This document shows, one piece after another, positions 54,822 to 64,000 of a DNA stretch of 64,000 nucleotides. This DNA is from Candidatus Atabeyarchaeum deiterrae (GTDB lineage: Archaea > Asgardarchaeota > Atabeyarchaeia > Atabeyarchaeales > Atabeyarchaeaceae), in contig CP147780.1 in the NCBI GenBank assembly GCA_037310415.1, forward strand, positions 2,496,001 through 2,560,000. The letters are read 5' to 3'. Numbering within the stretch: position 1 is the first letter of the stretch; each line of letters opens with the position of its first letter. Position numbers and translations under genes: made by a program. The notes beneath the pieces are model-generated. The model was not told the origin of the DNA, ran no database searches, and worked only from the letters and a program-made list of their open reading frames with translations.

Positions 54822-56669
54822 TCAGGAATGGCGGATGATTAGTCTGCGCCCAGTATGCTCATCTTTGAGGTCTCCTTCGTTCAAATGGCTACCGCACATC
54901 GGACAGTAGTTCCTCAAATGGATCCACTGAAGCAGATGAGCTCTGTGCCCAGCATTTCCACAGTGTGGACAGTACAGGATCGGCTCACTTGATTCGACAT
55001 TTGAGCCACAGACCATGCATTTTCCTCCAACACGAGGTTCGATCTTTGCTCTCTCAATAGGTTTTATGGTCGACCTAGGAAACGTTCCCAGCCTTACCCC
55101 GCAGTTGAAGCAATACAATGAGTCAGGATGTGAAACCTCGGCGCCACAGTTGTGGCAATATCTCGGAGTGGAAATGGGAGCCGCCTCTCCGCGGACAGAT
55201 TCAGTCTCTTGTCGAAGGTCCCTTCCGATCGGATAGTCACGCATCGACGCTCTTACTTGACGACGTCGTATCGTCGAGACAACACCCATGATTGCGATCA
55301 GAAAGACTGCCCCTCCCGATATCAATAGAAAGTTGAAGTCAAAAGTGCTACCAGGATTCCCATCACCACCCAGATTACCACCGGTAAGCGGGGAAAGAGC
55401 AGTACCTATGCAGTAGACAGAATTTGAACCTACTGCCACTACGATTTCCTGTCTGCCATCTGCATTCAGATCTGCGAAGGATGGAGGCGCGCTTAAGTAA
55501 TCACCCAAATAGAATTTCCACTCAAGGCCATAAACCGTGTCACCGCAGTAGAGATTGTTATCAGAGCCTGCCACCACAACTTCGTTGCGGAGGTTTCCGT
55601 CCATATCGGCAATCCCGGGAGAGAAACTGTAGAGATAGGAGTCCGCCATAAAAAGATATTTCACTCCCTCGATCCCGTCAAGGAACAAGACGCTGGATCC
55701 TCCTGAGGGAATCACAACTTCCTGTTGGGAATCTGTGTCGATATTGCCGACCGCAGCGATTCCTCCAGATGGCGATTTGTAAATAGACTTTACTGAACCA
55801 TTGCCATTGAGACAGTAGATGTTGCCATCGTAAGATCCCACTACTATTACTGGCTTTCCACTTCCATCTCCATTGAAAACGACTGGGGGAAAAGTATAGT
55901 AGTTGTAATAGCTTGGTCCTTGGCTGCGACTCCAGTTCAAAGCGCCTGTTTCATTAAGACAGTAGATTGTGGTGGTTACCTGTCCATACTGGTCATACGC
56001 ACTTGAGAATAACACTATCTCAGGTTTGCCATCCTCGTTTAAGTCGGCGACGACAGGCGGCGAAAGACTGCCTCCTGCATTGAACTTCCACTGTAGTCCC
56101 CCCGTCCCATTTAAGCAGTACAGTGTATAGTTGTCCGATTCTGCAAATATCTTTTGGCCAACGCCTCCGCCAACTTTCGCTATTACCAGAGCCGGAGTGA
56201 TTGGACTTCCCGTCGCAAAGCTCCACTTCAAGCCACCAGTACTGTTCAGGCAGTAGACATACGAATTATAGGACCCAAGCACTATTTCCTTCTGTCCGTC
56301 ACCGTCCACATCTGCAGCCACAACAGAGGAAACGGAGTCTGGCACGCTTTGGGACACCCATTTCAAACTTCCATTATTGCCTAGCCAGTAGAAACCATAG
56401 TAACCGCCCTGACCGAAAAGGATCTCCAGCTTTCCATCATTGTCAATGTCATCGACGCAAGGTCTGCAGTTGAAGTAGCCCCCATATGTCTGATAGCGCC
56501 ATTCTATTGTCGGCACAATATAGCCATATACGAAATTTCGTTGGGTATGATTGTCCACCATCAACTTCGTAATGCCAAGTTGGCTTGTTCTAGCACTAGA
56601 CGGACTGCTTATCAATAGGGAAATAATCACTACCGCTCCGATGGCGAACAATCGATTTCGCGTTTTCAG
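54822..56669 (-). CDS. Single-pass membrane protein: FG-GAP/PQQ-type beta-propeller ectodomain, Zn ribbon + RING-like domain
   Basis: Repeats ADVDGDGQKEIVLGS...YCLN..G.LKW; TM; CHNC..CFNC; same RING spacing as the 43 kb gene; CTG start at 56669 inferred. Confidence 0.82.
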   Translation of the reverse strand: MKTRNRLFAIGAVVIISLLISSPSSARTSQLGITKLMVDNHTQRNFVYGYIVPTIEWRYQTYGGYFNCRPCVDDIDNDGKLEILFGQGGYYGFYWLGNNGSLKWVSQSVPDSVSSVVAADVDGDGQKEIVLGSYNSYVYCLNSTGGLKWSFATGSPITPALVIAKVGGGVGQKIFAESDNYTLYCLNGTGGLQWKFNAGGSLSPPVVADLNEDGKPEIVLFSSAYDQYGQVTTTIYCLNETGALNWSRSQGPSYYNYYTFPPVVFNGDGSGKPVIVVGSYDGNIYCLNGNGSVKSIYKSPSGGIAAVGNIDTDSQQEVVIPSGGSSVLFLDGIEGVKYLFMADSYLYSFSPGIADMDGNLRNEVVVAGSDNNLYCGDTVYGLEWKFYLGDYLSAPPSFADLNADGRQEIVVAVGSNSVYCIGTALSPLTGGNLGGDGNPGSTFDFNFLLISGGAVFLIAIMGVVSTIRRRQVRASMRDYPIGRDLRQETESVRGEAAPISTPRYCHNCGAEVSHPDSLYCFNCGVRLGTFPRSTIKPIERAKIEPRVGGKCMVCGSNVESSEPILYCPHCGNAGHRAHLLQWIHLRNYCPMCGSHLNEGDLKDEHTGRRLIIRHS

Positions 56670-56871: not shown

Positions 56872-58011
56872 CTACCATGTCTGAGTTCCAGATATGATCT
56901 CTGCGATGTCAAGCACTGGCAGCTTTCTTTCTCCCTGCACACTTCTGTTTTGGACTTCGATCATCTGATCTTTGCAGAATGGGCAAGCAGTGGAGATAGA
57001 ATCCGCGCTGGTTGCGCGCGCCTCTTCTAGTCGCCTAAGACCAACTGACTCGGCAATATTCGGGTACGATGTTCTTAGACCGCCGCCACTCCCGCAGCAG
57101 TTGCTGTTCTTCTTGTTCCAGTCCATCTCAACAAGTTTGAGTTCCTTGACTTGTTGGAGGATGTTCCTCGGTTGGTCGTAGATGTTGCTGTGTCTTCCTA
57201 AGTGGCATGGGTCATGGTATGTGACTTTTCCAGCATGGGTTACTTCGGGGAGTGTTCTGCCTGATGAGTCAAGGTATTCAGTCAGATGCATTACTTTCGC
57301 GTCCAGTTTGAATCCTAGTCGTGGGTAGTCTTCCTTGAGAGTTCTGTGGCAACCTGGACACCCTGTGACTATTGTGTTGCATCCAAGCTTGTTTATTGAC
57401 TCAGCATTGTGTGTCAGAAGTCTCTTTGCTGAGTCCTCTAGCCCTAATCTGATTAGAGGTGAGCCGCAGCATTTTTCTGAGTCGGCCATCACGGTGTAAT
57501 TCTCATTCATCGTTTTGAAGATGGTTGTTATTGCGTTGGCGATCTCTGGATGCCGATAAGCTGTCGTGCAACCTACGAAGTACAAGGTTTCTGCTTTCTT
57601 AGCGCTCTTCTGGGTTCCCAGTTTGATTCTTGAGAATCTTTTGTTGTTTGCTTCCCCGTAGGGGTTGAAGTCTCTCAGCGTGGTCTCGTTCATCCGGGTT
57701 ACGCTTTGTGGTGACAATCCTTGGTGAACTATTTCCTTTCTGGCGGTCTCCATTATGCTGGCGACATCTACCTCCGGTTTACACCAAGTCTTGCATAAAC
57801 CACATGTGGCGCACTGGTAGATTGCCTCAACTGCTTTTGGGGAATATGCCATTTTCTTTATTGATGCAAGATAATAAGCAGAGCTGCGCCCGTAAGGTGT
57901 AATTGACTCATTCTTAGTTACTATGCCAGTCGGGCAAACAAATCTGCACATCTTATAGCATCCAGTACACATCTTAGCGTCGAAAAGCGAATCTCTTTGA
58001 ACTGTCGCCAA
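56872..58011 (-). CDS. Fe-S oxidoreductase with two CCG domains (GlpC/HdrD-like)
   Basis: CTGCYKMCRFVCP, CATCGLCKTWC, CCGSP, YHDPCHLGR, CCGSGGG, CPFC. Confidence 0.9.
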   Translation of the reverse strand: MATVQRDSLFDAKMCTGCYKMCRFVCPTGIVTKNESITPYGRSSAYYLASIKKMAYSPKAVEAIYQCATCGLCKTWCKPEVDVASIMETARKEIVHQGLSPQSVTRMNETTLRDFNPYGEANNKRFSRIKLGTQKSAKKAETLYFVGCTTAYRHPEIANAITTIFKTMNENYTVMADSEKCCGSPLIRLGLEDSAKRLLTHNAESINKLGCNTIVTGCPGCHRTLKEDYPRLGFKLDAKVMHLTEYLDSSGRTLPEVTHAGKVTYHDPCHLGRHSNIYDQPRNILQQVKELKLVEMDWNKKNSNCCGSGGGLRTSYPNIAESVGLRRLEEARATSADSISTACPFCKDQMIEVQNRSVQGERKLPVLDIAEIISGTQTW

Positions 58012-58026
58012 TGTGAGTCCACTTCC

Positions 58027-59463
58027 TCAGGTGATATCTAAACCGAGTTTTCCTGGGTTCATTATATTGTTCGGATCTAATGCCTTCTTCAATTTCACGA
58101 GGACTTCGTACGAGGAACCGAGTTCAGTTTTCAGGAATTTCCCTTTTAGCAGTCCTATGCTGTGGTGGTGACTCATTGTTCCTCCTGTGTCTAATGCGGC
58201 TTTCATTCCTTCTTCCCAGCATTTCTTGTAGATCTCTTCAGCTCGAATGTCATCAGACTCAGTTAAGACGAATATCATGTATATGGATCCGCCTTCAGTG
58301 TAGAAGTGTGAGAAGTGAGCCATGGCTTGAACCCGACCGCTTTTTTCGACGGCTTTCTTGACGTTCTGGTACAAATCCTCAAGCTTGTCATATGTGGCTC
58401 CGACATCAATTGTGTCGGCCAGCATGTGCATTCTTGCGTAGACGGGGTTCGGGTAGTACATGTTGTATCTCTTGCCAAACCATTTTTCCGCTTCTTCTGG
58501 TCCTAGGTCATTTCCTCCTTCTTCTTGGCAGATCTGGGTTGCTGCTTTCTCCTCAGCTCTAACAACGTCTTCGTTTCCTTCGAAGGTGAGTATTAGGAAG
58601 CAGTGTTTCCTTGGGATCTTTACCATCCCGAGGACTAGCATTGCATCCGTCTCGTCGTAGAGTCTAATGAGGCAGGGAATCACGTTCTTCCTGTAGAGTT
58701 TTCTCACTGCCTCGAGCCCACTGTGTAAGCTCGGTAAAATGAAACCTCTGAAGCGCCTCTCTTCAGGAAGCGGCATTATCCTGAACGTCAGCTCCGTTAT
58801 GATCCCCAACGTTCCTTCGGAACCTATGAAAATCTGGTTCAGGTTTGGACCAGTTGATGACTTTGGAGCTTTCCTTGTTCTGATGACTTCCCCCGTGGGT
58901 AGCACAGCTTCTAAACAGACAACCATGTCTTCTACTCTGCCGTATTTCGATGAGAATGTTCCAGCTGAGCGGCAGGCAGCAAATCCGCCTACCGATGAGC
59001 AGTACATGGAGGCTGGTTGATGAGGAAAGGTATAACCTCGCTTGTTGAGTGCATTCTCCAAGTCTTGACCAATGACTCCTGCTTGCACAGTCACCGTTGC
59101 AGACTTCTCATCTATCTCAAGTATCTTATCGAGTTTCTTTAGGTCAACAATCACGCCACCGTGAATGGGAATGGTTCCACCAGTTACTCCCGCACCGCCT
59201 CCATAAGGAATTACTGGTATCGTTTTTTCATTGGCTACTTTGACTATCTCTGCAACTTGCAACGTGTTTTCGGGCCAAACAATCACGTCGGGGAAAGGTT
59301 TGATGATACCTCTCTTGAACTCCATCAGTCTAAGAGACCAAGTATCTTTGCTATACGAGATTTTATCGAACAGAGCATCAGATACATTCTCTTCTCCAAC
59401 GATGTCTGTCAACGCTTGTTTGACATTCCCAACTTCTTCCTGTGGAATCCTACTGCTACTCAA
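58027..59463 (-). CDS. FAD-linked oxidase (VAO/PCMH), alkyl-DHAP synthase/GlcD-like
   Basis: PYGGGAGVTGG, SSVGGFAACRSAG..SSKYG, GSEGTLGIIT, HFSHFY..GGSIY, GTMSHHHSIG, DPNNIMNPGK. Confidence 0.88.
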   Translation of the reverse strand: MSSSRIPQEEVGNVKQALTDIVGEENVSDALFDKISYSKDTWSLRLMEFKRGIIKPFPDVIVWPENTLQVAEIVKVANEKTIPVIPYGGGAGVTGGTIPIHGGVIVDLKKLDKILEIDEKSATVTVQAGVIGQDLENALNKRGYTFPHQPASMYCSSVGGFAACRSAGTFSSKYGRVEDMVVCLEAVLPTGEVIRTRKAPKSSTGPNLNQIFIGSEGTLGIITELTFRIMPLPEERRFRGFILPSLHSGLEAVRKLYRKNVIPCLIRLYDETDAMLVLGMVKIPRKHCFLILTFEGNEDVVRAEEKAATQICQEEGGNDLGPEEAEKWFGKRYNMYYPNPVYARMHMLADTIDVGATYDKLEDLYQNVKKAVEKSGRVQAMAHFSHFYTEGGSIYMIFVLTESDDIRAEEIYKKCWEEGMKAALDTGGTMSHHHSIGLLKGKFLKTELGSSYEVLVKLKKALDPNNIMNPGKLGLDIT

Positions 59464-60089
59464 TTTTCATCCTTCCTCAAGATACACATAGATTTGCATC
59501 TTGCGAAAACCTTGATTACAGATACCAGTCGAAGTTACGAAGTTGTACGACATGCAAGATTACATATTATACTTCGTACTCGGCTCATTTTTCTTAGAAC
59601 TCCATGCCATTGTCTCATACAGCTTTTTCGCTGCCTTAAAAGCTTTGTAGCGATCTTTCAGTAAGAAACTTGCTTCTAACGATCTAAGTCGTCGTTCCTA
59701 TCTTTTTCTCCAAGAAGTATAGTGTGCGTTTGAACATGCAACTCCCCAACGATATCATTTTTGTCAATAAAAACAAACATCACTTTTCTTTATGTACTTC
59801 CCCTTGGTCGCGTTGCTACTGATCATAATTGAGCCGATACCATCTATGGGCAAGCGCATTATCGAGAACTTGACCAGCCTGCTAGATTCCGAATCCTAGT
59901 TATTAGTCGCTTGATTCGAGTCGGCCTCTCGGCAGAGATAATGCTCTGAGATAGAAAGACCTGCGCCATTACATGCCATTCGCAAGCCAAAGCCTTCTCT
60001 CTGCCTCGACATAAATCCGAGGATAGTGTGTGCATATCAAATCCTAAGACACGTGCAACCTTCCCCACGCCAAACCACTTTCCCGTTTA

Positions 60090-61055
60090 CTACATTTTCG
60101 CCTGCTCATCACCGCTCTTTCTCAGCTCAGACTCAAGCCTTCTAAATTCCTCCACCGGGATCAGATGCATGTAGTACTTGGACTTGGGGCTGCCACGAAT
60201 GAGAATGTGCTTAATGTGGCCGCTCCTACACCATCTTATCACAGTTGAAAGCGAGATAAGACCATGCAACCTCTGAGCAACTTCAAAAGGCGAGTAGAAT
60301 CTCAACTTCAACTCTGAAAGCGCACTGCTCAACTTCTCAACCTTCAACAGCCACCGTTGCACCTTCCACGAGTACTCGGTTATTCCCCTGCTCAACAAAG
60401 CTTCCCTCCCACGTTTCAAGATAGAGACAACTCTACCATTACTCTCAGAACCTGCATACCCCACCGAGACACCGTTAGGAGTCAAGCCGTCGACATACGC
60501 TTCAAGGAAATCAATTAGAAACGGGAACAATGTTTGAGCGAAACCCCAATGGGAAACCACCGCACCAAAGACACTATCCCTGTAATCCATCCTTACACTA
60601 GCATGCCCATCTCCGTCAATGAGACCAGCAATGAAAGGAACACCACACCTTATACCAAATAACTTGTTCTCCACCAGAAAACTCTCGACTTCTGCAATAC
60701 CCTTCCCTCTAAGAGCTTGCTTATCGGGAAGAAATCTACAGAGGTCCTTCGAGTTTACAGCCACTGTCACCATCTTCTTCTTCGAATGCTTCCACTTGAA
60801 TGGATTCAAACCAACACGCTTTAACAATTTAACCACCCTACATGCCAACTCCTCCTCCTTGCCCTCAGTGAGAAGAAAGCTAACGGTATACGATGTACTA
60901 CTCCTCCTCGCATAAGTGTAGGACTGTCCATCGGCAAGAAATAACCCGCGAAGGTAGCTCCATTCCTCAACGGAGAGCGCATGAACTTGAAGCACACGCA
61001 GCCCACTGGGGCATGAGGAACCAGATCCCCCGGAACAACTATTATTATTGCACAA
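60090..61055 (-). mobile_element. Free-standing double-LAGLIDADG homing-endonuclease-like gene with C-terminal excisionase-type HTH
   Basis: YLRGLFLADGQ and FIAGLIDGDGH motifs; FYSPFEVAQRL...STVIRWCRSGHIK HTH; base composition differs from the flanks; exact start uncertain. Confidence 0.75.
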
Positions 61056-61059
61056 TTTT

Positions 61060-61250
61060 GGAAATCAACTCGAACGCCAGAGAGAGGCGATTTCCCAGGA
61101 TACTGTGAGACGGCCGAAGCATTCGCCCGACTCCGAGCCCACAGGGCGAGGGGAAAAGAACAAAGTAGACGTAGGTGGAACGTCCTCCAAACGTACGCCA
61201 CTTGTCCTTCTAGGACGAAGGCAGGGGAGCAGAGCCACTTTCTCCAAGCG
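61060..61250 (-). ncRNA. Candidate structured RNA/leader upstream of the LAGLIDADG gene
   Basis: Four adjacent stems: 61060-61095, 61123-61149, 61168-61199, 61201-61220; G-U pairs favour the minus strand. Confidence 0.45.
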
Positions 61251-61726
61251 ACAACACAGCAATCAGTATGAGGAGGAGCTATAAGAACCCCTAAAACGCA
61301 AACCAAAACAAAATCTGCACCAAAAACGCCAAGAAGAATCAAGATAAAACGAAAATACTATGCGAGCACCGTACGACGCCGTAAAACGAACCACTGTAAA
61401 ATGTGGAAAAGCCCAGCATGAACTTCAAATACTATGCAAAAAGCAGAGCACTTTCATCAACAGAAAAAGCCCGATAGAGCACGATTTCACGGATTCGAGC
61501 AAGGAAACCACCCAGCCCAACCAAAAAGACATGATCAACTGGAGAAATAAGAAATCTTGCCGAACTCCGAGTCAGAGATATTTCCTTTTCCAACTATGCC
61601 CATTGGAGCTTGTTAAATAGTCTCAAGTTCTTCGACTGGAATTCCACTTTCGCTCAATTCTAGGCGCTCCTTTAGAATAGACTCTGATATGTTTCGCCAA
61701 CGGTCTCAGGTTTTGAGGCTGTAAGC

Positions 61727-63010
61727 TCAGACGATCTTTTTGGCCAGTAGAACAGTCAGATCTTCGACTTTGGTCATTAGAGATGAATTTGAGACTTCTT
61801 CGCTAAGTCGTATTACACATGTGGGGCAGGGGGCCACAATTCGCTGCGGGTTCTTTCCCTGTTGGAGGATTTCTTTCAATCTTGCACTTGTGATCTTTGA
61901 TGCGACATTTGGTTTGTATGTGCTAAGAAGCCCTCCTGCGCCACAGCATTGCTGGCGGATGTTTCGAGTTGTCACCTCAACTCCGGGTAGTGTTTTCGCG
62001 ACTTCAATGATGTAATCTTGAATTCGCCTGCTTAGATGTCTGGTCAAGTGACATGCGGGGTGAATAGCAACTCTTTCGATAGTCTCCTTCTTCTTTCCCT
62101 GTTTTGCCTTCGCTAGCTTCATGACTTTGTCCAAGCCAACGTCCTCAACCAAATACTCCGTGAGATGTTTCACGCGTATCCCCGAATTCGATTCTAACTT
62201 CGTAAACGAATTTTGAAGCGTATTTGCACATCCAGCGCACGTGGCTACAACTGTCTTCGCTCCGACTTGCTTGACTCTCTCAAATGTTGAGGCTGCCAGC
62301 TTGCTGGCTAGCTCGACATCCCCTATTAGGGTTGCCGGGAGACCGCAGCATGCTTCATTCTTCATTAGTGTGTAGTCTGTTCCAAGTTTCTCTAGGGTAA
62401 GTTTTCCTGACTCTCTGATTTCAAGTGATCTGTGAGTTGATATGCAACCCGCAAAGTAAACGACATCTGCTGACTCCTTATAGATGTCCCGCTTGTACGG
62501 TAGACCGAGGTCCTTCACTGCTGATTCCGCCAGATCAATTCGAAGCTGTTCATCTTCGGGAACCAAACTCGTCCCGTATCGGGATAGGTTCTTATGCATC
62601 ACTTTATGGCTCTCGGGGATAATTTCTGGCCTCAATTTGAATATCTTTGCTCTAATTGCACTCACGATTTCTGGAACCGGTACTTTCTCAGGGCATATTT
62701 CTTCGCACGCTCCGCATTCACTACAACTGTAAACCAGGTCCTTAACGTTCCAGAAATCTGGATTCACACGCGAGAGAGTTGTTGCCATACTTCTCGGACC
62801 AAGAAAGACGTCGAATGATGTTGCTTCCAAGACAGGACAAGACGGAAGACATACGCCACAGTTCAAGCATTTGCCGAGCTCCGCAATCAACTTGTCCTCT
62901 CCTGGCTCAGCCTGAAGCAAGTTCAGTGACTTCACTTTTTCCTTTATGAAGTCATATCCTGCAATACTGCTACTTGAAGTCGTTTTGCCTTCTGCGGTCA
63001 TTTCTATCAT
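61727..63010 (-). CDS. glpC: Anaerobic glycerol-3-phosphate dehydrogenase subunit C-like Fe-S/CCG protein
   Basis: CLNCGVCLPSCP, CSECGACEEICP, two CCG domains; directly downstream of glpB. Confidence 0.75.
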   Translation of the reverse strand: MIEMTAEGKTTSSSSIAGYDFIKEKVKSLNLLQAEPGEDKLIAELGKCLNCGVCLPSCPVLEATSFDVFLGPRSMATTLSRVNPDFWNVKDLVYSCSECGACEEICPEKVPVPEIVSAIRAKIFKLRPEIIPESHKVMHKNLSRYGTSLVPEDEQLRIDLAESAVKDLGLPYKRDIYKESADVVYFAGCISTHRSLEIRESGKLTLEKLGTDYTLMKNEACCGLPATLIGDVELASKLAASTFERVKQVGAKTVVATCAGCANTLQNSFTKLESNSGIRVKHLTEYLVEDVGLDKVMKLAKAKQGKKKETIERVAIHPACHLTRHLSRRIQDYIIEVAKTLPGVEVTTRNIRQQCCGAGGLLSTYKPNVASKITSARLKEILQQGKNPQRIVAPCPTCVIRLSEEVSNSSLMTKVEDLTVLLAKKIV

Positions 63011-63035
63011 TGCACCCCAATGTTGTTCTTCCTTG

Positions 63036-64000
63036 TCAATTCCTTGATGCCTCATCGCCTGCCACGTAGCCTGTGCTTATTGCTACGCCGTACCGACATC
63101 CACCACTTGTATGACTGAAGCCAGAGAGGATGTTTCCGCAGGCGAACAGATTGCCGTATATGACCTCTCCTTGAGTCGTAGTCGGTTGCATGTTTTCGTT
63201 CACTTTGACCCCGATCGAGAACACTGAATGCCCCCCCATTGGAACAGCTTCGCTGGAGAGCATCGTTCTAATGAACACGCCATCTGCTTCCCTGCCGTTT
63301 TCGTCGAAGAGCGGTAAGTTCAGAAGCGGTTCTTTGGCTGTTTCGTCCTTCTCGACGATTCCTCCACCAATGAAGCTGCCAGTTGCTAGGACAAACTTCT
63401 CAGCTTCGACCTGGAATTTTCTTTCACCTGACACTACAGTCATATTTCTCAAGGTTTTTCCTTCAGCTTCGAACGCGCTAGTCTCGTATGGCAGCATAAT
63501 GGGGACTCCTGAGTCACTGGCAGAGTCATCTAACGCCAGCTGCAACCTGTAGCCGAGAACTGAAGGTGGAGTCAGATTCACGCATTCAAATGGTATCAGA
63601 CCAGATTCTTCACCAATGATTTTCATGTTTTCCTCGACGTTTCTTATTCCCATGCATGGCGGCAAACATGCGTGCGTTGCTCCCAGCCCATTCGCAGCAC
63701 CTGCAATCATGCGCCCGACTTTTTTCGCAACTCCTTCCTCGCGTTCGATCTCTCTAGCCACTTCGATGCTGAGCAACGTGTTTCTGCCTTCAAAGTTGGG
63801 CAAGTCGATTACTGTACTGCTGCACCCGTTCACTTCGAGGGGGAGACGTAGAATGCTCTTTATCGACGTGAAATTCTGATAACATCGATTGGGGTCGTAG
63901 TCAGAGTGTCTCTTGAATCCTACAAACACAATTCTCCCCTTCTCCATTCGTGTCAGATCTCCTCTTCCAACGCTTGGAGGAGCGAGACAAGTTGTTCTGA
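63036..64000 (-). CDS. glpB: Anaerobic glycerol-3-phosphate dehydrogenase subunit B (5' end outside window)
   Basis: PPSVLGYRLQ, VLATGSFIGGG, EPLLNLP, GVKVN, NLFACG, GVAISTG; frame open to the window edge. Confidence 0.88.
   Translation of the reverse strand, partial: RTTCLAPPSVGRGDLTRMEKGRIVFVGFKRHSDYDPNRCYQNFTSIKSILRLPLEVNGCSSTVIDLPNFEGRNTLLSIEVAREIEREEGVAKKVGRMIAGAANGLGATHACLPPCMGIRNVEENMKIIGEESGLIPFECVNLTPPSVLGYRLQLALDDSASDSGVPIMLPYETSAFEAEGKTLRNMTVVSGERKFQVEAEKFVLATGSFIGGGIVEKDETAKEPLLNLPLFDENGREADGVFIRTMLSSEAVPMGGHSVFSIGVKVNENMQPTTTQGEVIYGNLFACGNILSGFSHTSGGCRYGVAISTGYVAGDEASRN

Follow-up and report, generated by a model that had tools for sequence, protein, structure and literature searches.

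A candidate end-replacing homing element with a structured leader RNA in the chromosome of an Atabeyarchaeia (Asgard) archaeon

Here we describe a LAGLIDADG-helix-turn-helix (HTH) element in the chromosome of the Asgard archaeon Candidatus Atabeyarchaeum deiterrae and argue that it is, with a probability of roughly 0.6, an end-replacing homing genetic element comparable in its working to the WHO elements of yeasts. The window, that is, the whole stretch of DNA that was analysed, comprises 64,000 nucleotides (contig CP147780.1, positions 2,496,001 to 2,560,000; positions below are counted from the first letter of the window) of a 2.76 Mb Atabeyarchaeia chromosome that is represented by a single contig. 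The putative mobile unit covers 2194 nt on the minus strand (59353-61546) and consists, in this order, of a T/G-rich tract, a promoter-like motif, a leader RNA of ~190 nt, the LAGLIDADG-HTH gene, and a tail with spare codons 1-37 of the neighboring gene for a flavin adenine dinucleotide (FAD)-linked oxidase (Table 1). An earlier reading made from the letters alone (the sequence-only reading) had taken this segment for an intergenic selfish element without terminal repeats or target duplication, distinguished by a strand skew of its own.

An element within the 5' end of a flavoprotein gene

When considering the possibility that a chromosomal segment has been inserted, the first question is whether an uninterrupted counterpart exists. 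Three genomes are compared here, namely, the one that holds the window (G000), the sister genome SRVP18_Atabeyarchaeia-1 (G001), and the metagenome-assembled genome LC30 (G002); L-numbers are locus labels. In G001, the orthologs of the two flanking genes are 39 nt apart, as compared to 2263 nt in the window, so that the empty site which the sequence-only reading had proposed to seek in relatives does exist. The placement given in that reading, between glpC and a FAD oxidase gene, holds as well: according to Pfam, a gene with a Fer4 and two CCG domains (GlpC-like) lies on one side and a gene with FAD_binding_4 and FAD-oxidase_C domains on the other.

The segment at 61547-61657 (minus strand) is a diverged direct copy, 111 nt long and in register, of codons 1-37 of the live oxidase gene (59353-59463), with 65.8% nucleotide and 54% amino acid identity (tblastn E 1.7e-8); it also matches the N-terminus of the oxidase of G001 (E 1.2e-8). 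This relic has its own Shine-Dalgarno (SD) sequence (AAAGGAG) and TTG start codon, its translation reads LSESGIPVEELETI, then a stop (the in-frame TAA at codon 15), then QAPMGIVGKGNISDSEFGKISY, and codon 37 (KISY) is the last that resembles the live gene, the skewed tract starting exactly at that point. Since the relic is a copy of codons 1-37, the unit can be placed inside the gene, after codon 37. In this arrangement, the unit brings replacement codons 1-37 at its 3' end, the old 5' end being left behind as a relic joined to a glpABC-like gene string. Hence neither "intergenic" nor "no target duplication" can be upheld, as the unit sits within the 5' end of the oxidase gene and replaces it. 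The duplication is most likely the key to how the element works: the element at a gene end, the diverged replacement of that end, and the old end as a relic together make up a WHO-like layout. The tail of the unit probably carries the promoter and the SD sequence (GAGGAAGG) that now serve the oxidase gene. A second relic was looked for, and a DIVGE-like trace (DIVGELHV, 59733-59756) was not significant (E 1.5).

The lack of terminal repeats noted from the sequence alone is borne out: upon a search for terminal inverted repeats and end-to-end pairing, nine elements scored no better than shuffled controls, and the window pairs I4 and I6, which had looked suggestive of inverted repeats or of the ends of a bulge-helix-bulge (BHB)-like intron, were rejected accordingly. 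A group I or archaeal BHB intron was also rejected, there being no Rfam match at E<=1 and no end pairing above shuffles, and the host gene being restored by duplication rather than by splicing. The reported absence of intein and of tRNA or rRNA context stands; Rfam (E<=1) gave no match in 58500-64000, and ARAGORN gave none in the window. The insert contains five extra candidate open reading frames (ORFs), none with a Pfam family, and no transposase, integrase or reverse transcriptase.

The same design recurs elsewhere. At L059 in G002, the relic of a GTPase 5' end, which shares 68% identity with its live counterpart (E 2e-9), leads directly into a T/G-rich tract, followed by the leader, an endonuclease pseudogene, a tail, and the live 5' end, and the corresponding site is empty in G000; at L066, codons ~1-15 of the downstream gene are duplicated around the insert. 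Over the family, diverged same-strand duplicates flank the endonuclease gene at 12 distinct of ~50 loci but only at 6 of 246 size-matched control genes, an approximately ten-fold enrichment.

These observations bear on the foremost alternative, namely, that we are dealing with an ordinary free-standing homing endonuclease gene that happens to lie beside the oxidase gene, much as the seg and mob genes of phage T4 with their "intronless homing", the relic being a by-product of sloppy repair or co-conversion. The empty site, the multi-copy family, the lack of terminal inverted repeats and the sequestration of the ribosome-binding site in a hairpin all match phage precedents (Edgell, Gibb & Belfort 2010, PMC2988022), and most copies have no detectable flanking duplicate. 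Such a by-product would hardly be expected to begin at a real SD sequence and start codon and to end exactly at the edge of the element, nor would the architecture be expected to repeat at a different gene (L059) or the flanking duplicates to exceed the controls ten-fold; we therefore regard this explanation as possible but unlikely.

The endonuclease and its family

The two LAGLIDADG motifs, each with its acidic residue, and the excisionase-like HTH that had been recognized by eye are all confirmed by profile searches. The motifs read YLRGLFLADG (60927-60956) and FIAGLIDGDG (60606-60635), and Pfam LAGLIDADG_3 matches the 321-amino-acid ORF with E 4e-8. The C-terminal HTH_17 (residues 253-295, E 2e-4) falls under the Pfam cut-off in the window copy, whereas relatives have one to three HTH_17 modules over the cut-off that also match TIGR01764 ("excisionase"); the window copy has no match in NCBIfam. 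The ORF terminates at TAG TAA, and the next 70 codons in frame match the second HTH module of the family (hidden Markov model E 1.6e-5, in a three-sequence search). In an alignment of 49 sequences (30-42% identity to the query), residues Y34, G37, D42, F141, G144, D147, G148, D149, G150 and Q174 are invariant; the catalytic Asp residues of both motifs, D42 and D149, are among them, and thus both motif acids have been retained.

The AlphaFold2 model built from this alignment has a mean predicted local distance difference test score of 92.9 and a predicted template modeling (TM) score of 0.86, and its best Foldseek matches in the Protein Data Bank (PDB) are I-AniI and I-DmoI (TM by target 0.70-0.74, E 1e-8, probability 1.00). 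The predicted fold is that of a monomeric double-motif LAGLIDADG endonuclease, with the pseudo-dimeric alpha-beta-beta-alpha-beta-beta-alpha arrangement. No WhiA structure appears within the Foldseek top 50, and phmmer finds no match for the protein among PDB sequences. Longer fused or intein forms of the family were not found either, which is weak evidence.

The family is confined to three of the 41 genomes of the phylum and was found in none of the other 38. There are four copies and one frameshifted remnant (~39.7-40.1 kb) in G000, six copies in G001, and 18 in G002, several of them with stop codons; with the query protein, the copies in G000, G001 and G002 share 33-43% identity. An exhaustive profile-free search gave 116 cluster representatives, none above 46% identity. 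Most of the copies of G001 and G002 are absent at the syntenic site of G000, and a few pairs are syntenic (L004/L044, L017/L026). Paralogous copies, the search for which had been suggested along with the notion of a selfish element, are thus plentiful, and selfishness itself is well supported by the empty site in G001, the multi-copy family, the many sites that are empty in G000, and the decayed copies.

Several individual copies deserve mention. The remnant, a fifth copy in decay (G000:C1:39700-40140; L126:1204-1607, minus strand), has lost 87 nt from the interior of its leader (31.6 bits with the leader model R1, see below), and its frameshifted pseudogene reads YLMGLYFTDG followed by LQGNEIEIAERV in another frame. 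Locus L002 (G000:C1:1216410-1217522), upon comparison with G002:C40 and G001:C1:1403172-1404785, duplicates the 3' end of its convergent downstream gene (40 codons, 55% identity) and therefore is a tail-replacing case; its empty site in G001 measures 43 nt. The copies L004/L044/L101 and L023/L045/L099 form a basal clade that is leaderless and syntenic across genera, with short upstream regions of the TATA type and an ordinary third-position G+T of 0.45-0.60; these copies may be domesticated or long fixed. At 14 leader-bearing loci, the upstream ORF is co-oriented with the endonuclease gene in 11 of 14 cases and the downstream ORF in 9 of 12, which, with crude ORF calls and non-independent copies, fits 5'-end targeting of the downstream gene. 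A viral reservoir of the family was considered and rejected: IMG/VR yields two distant N-terminal matches only, and the 17-mer hits there fail the RNA model.

The basal clade lends some substance to a second alternative, according to which the gene encodes a domesticated LAGLIDADG-HTH regulator, WhiA-like in its logic and expanded in this lineage, with the leader as a regulatory 5' untranslated region and with presence and absence reflecting plain gene gain and loss. Indeed, the order of a LAGLIDADG part and a C-terminal HTH resembles WhiA, and the basal copies (L004/L044 and others) are syntenic across genera, leaderless and of ordinary composition. A domesticated regulator would not be expected to keep both catalytic Asp residues invariant, to be flanked at many copies by relics of target-gene ends, or to leave so many pseudogenes; moreover, HTH_WhiA is not found, LAGLIDADG_WhiA is only sub-threshold (E 0.088) in a single relative, and the window copy is missing from the syntenic site of G001. 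The sequence-only reading had named a single-copy, syntenic, vertically inherited gene of the WhiA type as what would speak against a selfish element; this description does not apply to the window copy, although the basal leaderless clade is syntenic and of ordinary composition. For the window copy, we consider a regulator very unlikely.

Leader RNA and strand bias

Immediately 5' of the ORF, a stretch of 220 nt is 77% identical to the equivalent region of a paralog whose protein is ~40% identical, and, generally, the leader DNA is 70-94% identical between copies, as compared to ~40% for the proteins. The leader was found by a hidden Markov model and then by the covariance model R1 (190 positions, 56 pairs), which yields 18 instances, all of them immediately 5' of a family ORF (by source, eight in the three genomes and 11 in metagenome contigs), and also matches the decayed remnant of G000; R1 has no further match in the three genomes and none in viral contigs. 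In the alignment of 18 sequences, 90.6% of the cells are paired, versus 39-48% with the partners slid, 24 cells show double changes, versus 1-8, and the observed score was reached by none of 500 shuffles. Covariation is seen, for example, at pairs 52:76 (AU 8, UG 7, UA 1, CG 1), 41:88 (AU 10, GU 4, GC 3) and 193:227 (UA 6, CG 5). Such covariation on the sense strand points to a conserved secondary structure of the kind expected of a cis-regulatory leader, and the many G-U pairs, which work on the sense strand only, argue for a function as RNA and not as a DNA palindrome. The structure comprises closing helices, a 24-bp hairpin, a variable arm and a terminal hairpin, and it appears only from the alignment, single-sequence folding giving an uninformative z of -0.81. 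No Rfam family matches the leader, which is, on well-supported grounds, a structured RNA class new to Rfam. An upstream ORF or peptide (LRPKRTSGV...) within the leader was considered and rejected: 1-nt indels shift its frame between copies, and open frames are to be expected in A-poor sequence.

In the consensus of the last hairpin, (C/U)AAAUCACCUC pairs with GAGGUGAUUU(G/A). Comparison with the 3' end of the 16S rRNA of G000, GGAUCACCUCCU, shows that the 5' arm mimics the anti-SD sequence and that the 3' arm is the SD sequence itself. In the window copy, this 3' arm (GAGUUGAUUU) is mutated from the consensus, and a TTG start codon follows 6 nt on; across copies, the start codon varies between TTG, ATG and GTG and lies 5-9 nt past the hairpin. 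The motif GGGGTTCTTATAG, ~45 nt upstream of the leader, is probably a B recognition element/TATA promoter.

Turning to the strand bias, the A/C-rich plus strand that was noticed by eye proves to be a strong signal: the plus strand of 60060-61570 has 61.2% A+C, as compared to a genome mean of 49.8% (standard deviation 2.8%), which corresponds to z=4.0 and to the top 0.4% of windows of the genome. When the skew was computed so as to define the ends, as had been proposed, the skewed domain was found to span ~60000-61600, with a sharp jump at the 5' edge of the element. The sense strand of the ORF, with 59.8% G+T, stands at the 99.7th percentile of 1729 long ORFs, third codon positions reach a G+T of 0.68 (99.8th percentile) with an AT skew of -0.43, and the unconstrained upstream DNA has a sense G+T of 0.74. 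Paralog L003, which lies on the opposite DNA strand, has the same bias, so the bias follows gene orientation and not replication. Averaged over 14 leader-bearing copies, G+T shows a jump at -500 nt relative to the start codon, where 0.49 gives way to 0.66; its maximum of 0.73 lies immediately 5' of the promoter motif, and it amounts to 0.60-0.67 in the ORF and fades to 0.55 in the tail. In the window, the jump, common to the 14 copies, coincides with the junction of relic and element. The mean third-position G+T is 0.676 in leader-bearing copies (n=17), 0.55 in the others (n=40) and 0.478 in the genome; on the poorly resolved family tree, the association of leader and skew comes down to two independent contrasts on supported branches, too few for a valid p-value.

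The T/G-rich tract itself reaches 74% G+T on the sense strand, with many runs of four to five T, and has weak motifs in common with other copies. These weakly conserved blocks (alignment A6) are GGGCTGAGCGGTTTC..GCTCAAATCCGTG, GCGTAAA.TGCGT, and TATATGAAGTCC, a second TATA-like motif, and the true start of transcription may lie upstream of the one assumed here. If the bias is selected, the T runs could serve as archaeal terminators, insulating the nuclease gene from operon read-through. The "own mutational signature" of the sequence-only reading accordingly stands as a fact of composition, in that it is seen at third positions and in upstream DNA, follows gene orientation and is common to the leader-bearing copies. 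As to its direction, the sense strand favors T over A and G over C, as would be expected if it had been exposed and had undergone deamination (C to T, A to G); exposure by transcription, exposure by repair synthesis during homing, or selection are all candidate causes.

It might be argued from these data that the RNA is the active partner of an RNA-centred mobile unit, whether intron-like, guide-like or a template for retro-homing, and that the skew was left by a phase spent as RNA or as single-stranded DNA. The RNA, always linked to the protein, surpasses it in conservation, the top structural match I-AniI is also an RNA maturase, and the sense G+T skew is of the kind that single-strand deamination gives. 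Such a unit should show an intron or ribozyme match in Rfam or an exon context, end-to-end pairing above chance, or a reverse transcriptase in the insert, and none of these is found; the 3' hairpin, for its part, looks like a plain SD-sequestering expression platform and points to cis-regulation, which makes an RNA-centred unit highly improbable. Still less credible is the insertion of a transposon, or of an island of the integrase type, that made a long target duplication, since, apart from the direct duplication that flanks the unit, there is no transposase or integrase and no terminal inverted repeat in the insert, and the two duplicates, 66% identical, are more diverged than orthologs of the two genera (~74%), despite the clean empty site in G001. 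A simple insertion sequence fails similarly, as its duplication would be short and identical.

A homing cycle, its precedents and its implications

Taken together, the anatomy of the unit, the relic, the empty site, the family-wide pattern of presence and absence, the covariation in the RNA, the predicted fold and the catalytic residues allow the following course of events to be envisaged. The nuclease would cut element-free alleles of the oxidase gene near codon 37/38, the candidate substrate being the G001 gene in the region of codons 30-45, and repair would copy the entire unit over from the element-bearing allele. The oxidase gene would be kept intact, since the unit would furnish it with another 5' end and, probably, with a promoter, and the old 5' end would stay upstream as a dead relic. 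The leader would hold translation of the nuclease low or conditional, the last hairpin locking the SD sequence against the mimic of the 16S 3' end.

Several points weigh against this scenario. Cleavage, its site and homing have been deduced rather than directly seen, and so has the regulatory role of the RNA. Most leader-bearing copies are without a detectable flanking duplicate at E<1e-3. At the oxidase site, the element could have been lost in G001 instead of gained in G000. The relic is short and, because N-termini diverge fast, the relic, live and G001 N-termini are all ~50% identical, so that they point to no one donor of the 5' end. Presence and absence at syntenic sites vary between genomes, but no such variation within populations is seen in contigs: in each of four public DNA runs (two studies), the contigs include the element and show no element-free allele, joint across it or circular form, although contigs drop rare variants. 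We know of no documented exchange of DNA between Atabeyarchaeia cells, which homing would need. Finally, the window copy may be inactive, with its mutated SD sequence (GAGUUGAU instead of GAGGUGAU), its truncated C-terminus and the lowest leader score among full-length copies (137 bits versus 154-207). Since its second HTH module lies behind the double stop TAG TAA, its SD sequence is mutated, its leader score is the lowest, and all run contigs carry the element, this copy appears to be fixed in the sampled populations and starting to decay.

A broader picture, which we put forward as speculative and rather improbable as a whole, would combine an Asgard radiation of 5'-end-replacing homing elements, spread over many genes, with a G+T bias that is the scar of homing. 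Each element would be throttled by a shared riboregulator, to be opened by its own nuclease or by a signal of the cell state. In productive homing events, invasion would start from the upstream break end, from which the sense strand would be synthesised through the element, and this strand, waiting in single-stranded form, would suffer C-to-T and A-to-G deamination; the bias would then be highest at the 5' edge and fade towards the tail, and composition would record the direction and frequency of homing.

As to the genomic surroundings (Table 1), the gene string in 56872-64000 consists of a GlpB-like gene (FAD_binding_2), the GlpC-like gene (Fer4+CCG), the element, the FAD-linked oxidase gene and the gene for a second CCG protein. 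The element separates the oxidase/CCG pair from the upstream genes, whence the expression of the pair would now rely on sequence within the tail of the element. Further on, 54822-56651 (minus strand) encodes a membrane protein of 609 amino acids with, according to Pfam, an FG-GAP/beta-propeller ectodomain and a cytoplasmic tail with a double zinc ribbon and a RING-like part.

Table 1. Features of the element and its flanks, listed in the direction of transcription (window positions)
Feature	Position	Strand	Evidence or detail
Upstream host gene, GlpC-like, Fer4 + 2x CCG	61727..63055	-	Pfam; 68% identical to G001 ortholog
Original spacer between GlpC-like gene and old FAD-oxidase start	61658..61726	-	SD AAAGGAG 8 nt before TTG
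Relic of FAD-oxidase 5' end, codons 1-37	61547..61657	-	TTG start, TAA at codon 15
T/G-rich tract, putative 5' part of mobile unit	61293..61546	-	composition
Conserved GGGGTTCTTATAG motif, ~45 nt 5' of leader	61280..61292	-	probable promoter
Structured 5' leader RNA	61054..61241	-	model R1, 137 bits, E 8e-37
Terminal hairpin of leader	61060..61095	-	5' arm AAAUCGCCUC, 3' arm GAGUUGAUUU
LAGLIDADG-HTH endonuclease gene, 321 amino acids	60090..61055	-	motifs 60927-60956 and 60606-60635; HTH_17 60171-60299
Second HTH module, decayed, in frame past double stop	59859..60089	-	TAG TAA at 60087-60092
Tail of unit, AT-rich, unskewed; no gene found	59464..59858	-
Replacement 5' end (live FAD-oxidase codons 1-37)	59353..59463	-
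Target/host gene, FAD_binding_4 + FAD-oxidase_C flavoprotein	58027..59463	-	81% identical to G001 ortholog

The closest parallel to the layout described here is provided by the WHO elements of Torulaspora and Lachancea yeasts, which are related to HO (Coughlan et al. 2020, PMC7282813; Osborne et al. 2026, bioRxiv 10.64898/2026.08.13.744650) and have been described as forming a third and rare category among homing elements (bioRxiv 10.64898/2026.08.13.744650). In both cases, a LAGLIDADG nuclease with an extra DNA-binding domain, belonging to a diverse family with decayed members, lies at one end of a host gene; a diverged copy of this end restores the gene without splicing, and the former end becomes a relic. 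The differences are equally clear: the present element resides in an archaeal chromosome and replaces the 5' end (codons 1-37) where WHO replaces the 3' half; it lacks a Hint/intein-like domain and has an HTH in place of a zinc finger; its family has many target genes instead of one, as well as a conserved structured leader RNA; and its cleavage is only inferred. Because Pfam finds LAGLIDADG_3 and HTH_17 only, the window protein would be an analogue of WHO in mechanism and not a member by descent.

With I-DmoI, the protein shares the predicted fold, two motifs per chain and both acidic residues, but I-DmoI is encoded in an rRNA intron, has no HTH and is only ~17% identical in sequence. The seg and mob genes of T-even phages and I-TevI likewise lie outside introns and inteins, spread by double-strand-break repair and have an RNA hairpin over the ribosome-binding site, such sequestering hairpins being known for phage homing endonucleases (PMC2988022); those enzymes, however, are of the GIY-YIG and HNH types, belong to phage genomes and have short hairpins, as compared to the ~190-nt multi-helix leader conserved across paralogs here. 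For a large multi-helix leader conserved across homing-endonuclease paralogs, no precedent is known to us. WhiA has the LAGLIDADG scaffold followed by a C-terminal HTH, but its catalytic residues are gone, it occurs as a single, syntenic copy, and its HTH is of another family. The Atabeyarchaeia papers of Valentin-Alvarado et al. (PMC11291895, PMC11529989) do not mention genes of this family, the 2026 WHO preprint (bioRxiv 10.64898/2026.08.13.744650) does not mention archaea, and we found no paper that ties Asgard LAGLIDADG genes to end-replacing homing.

Thus, end-replacing spread has so far been published for the yeast WHO elements only, and a mirror-image, multi-copy, many-target form in the archaea nearest to eukaryotes would widen this category. 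The family could supply new meganuclease scaffolds that carry HTH add-ons in modular form, and its strand bias is a clean, as yet unexplained compositional signal tied to one element family. For the organism, such elements would remodel gene starts and the wiring of operons, as illustrated by the flavoprotein gene that has been cut off from its glpABC-like transcription unit.

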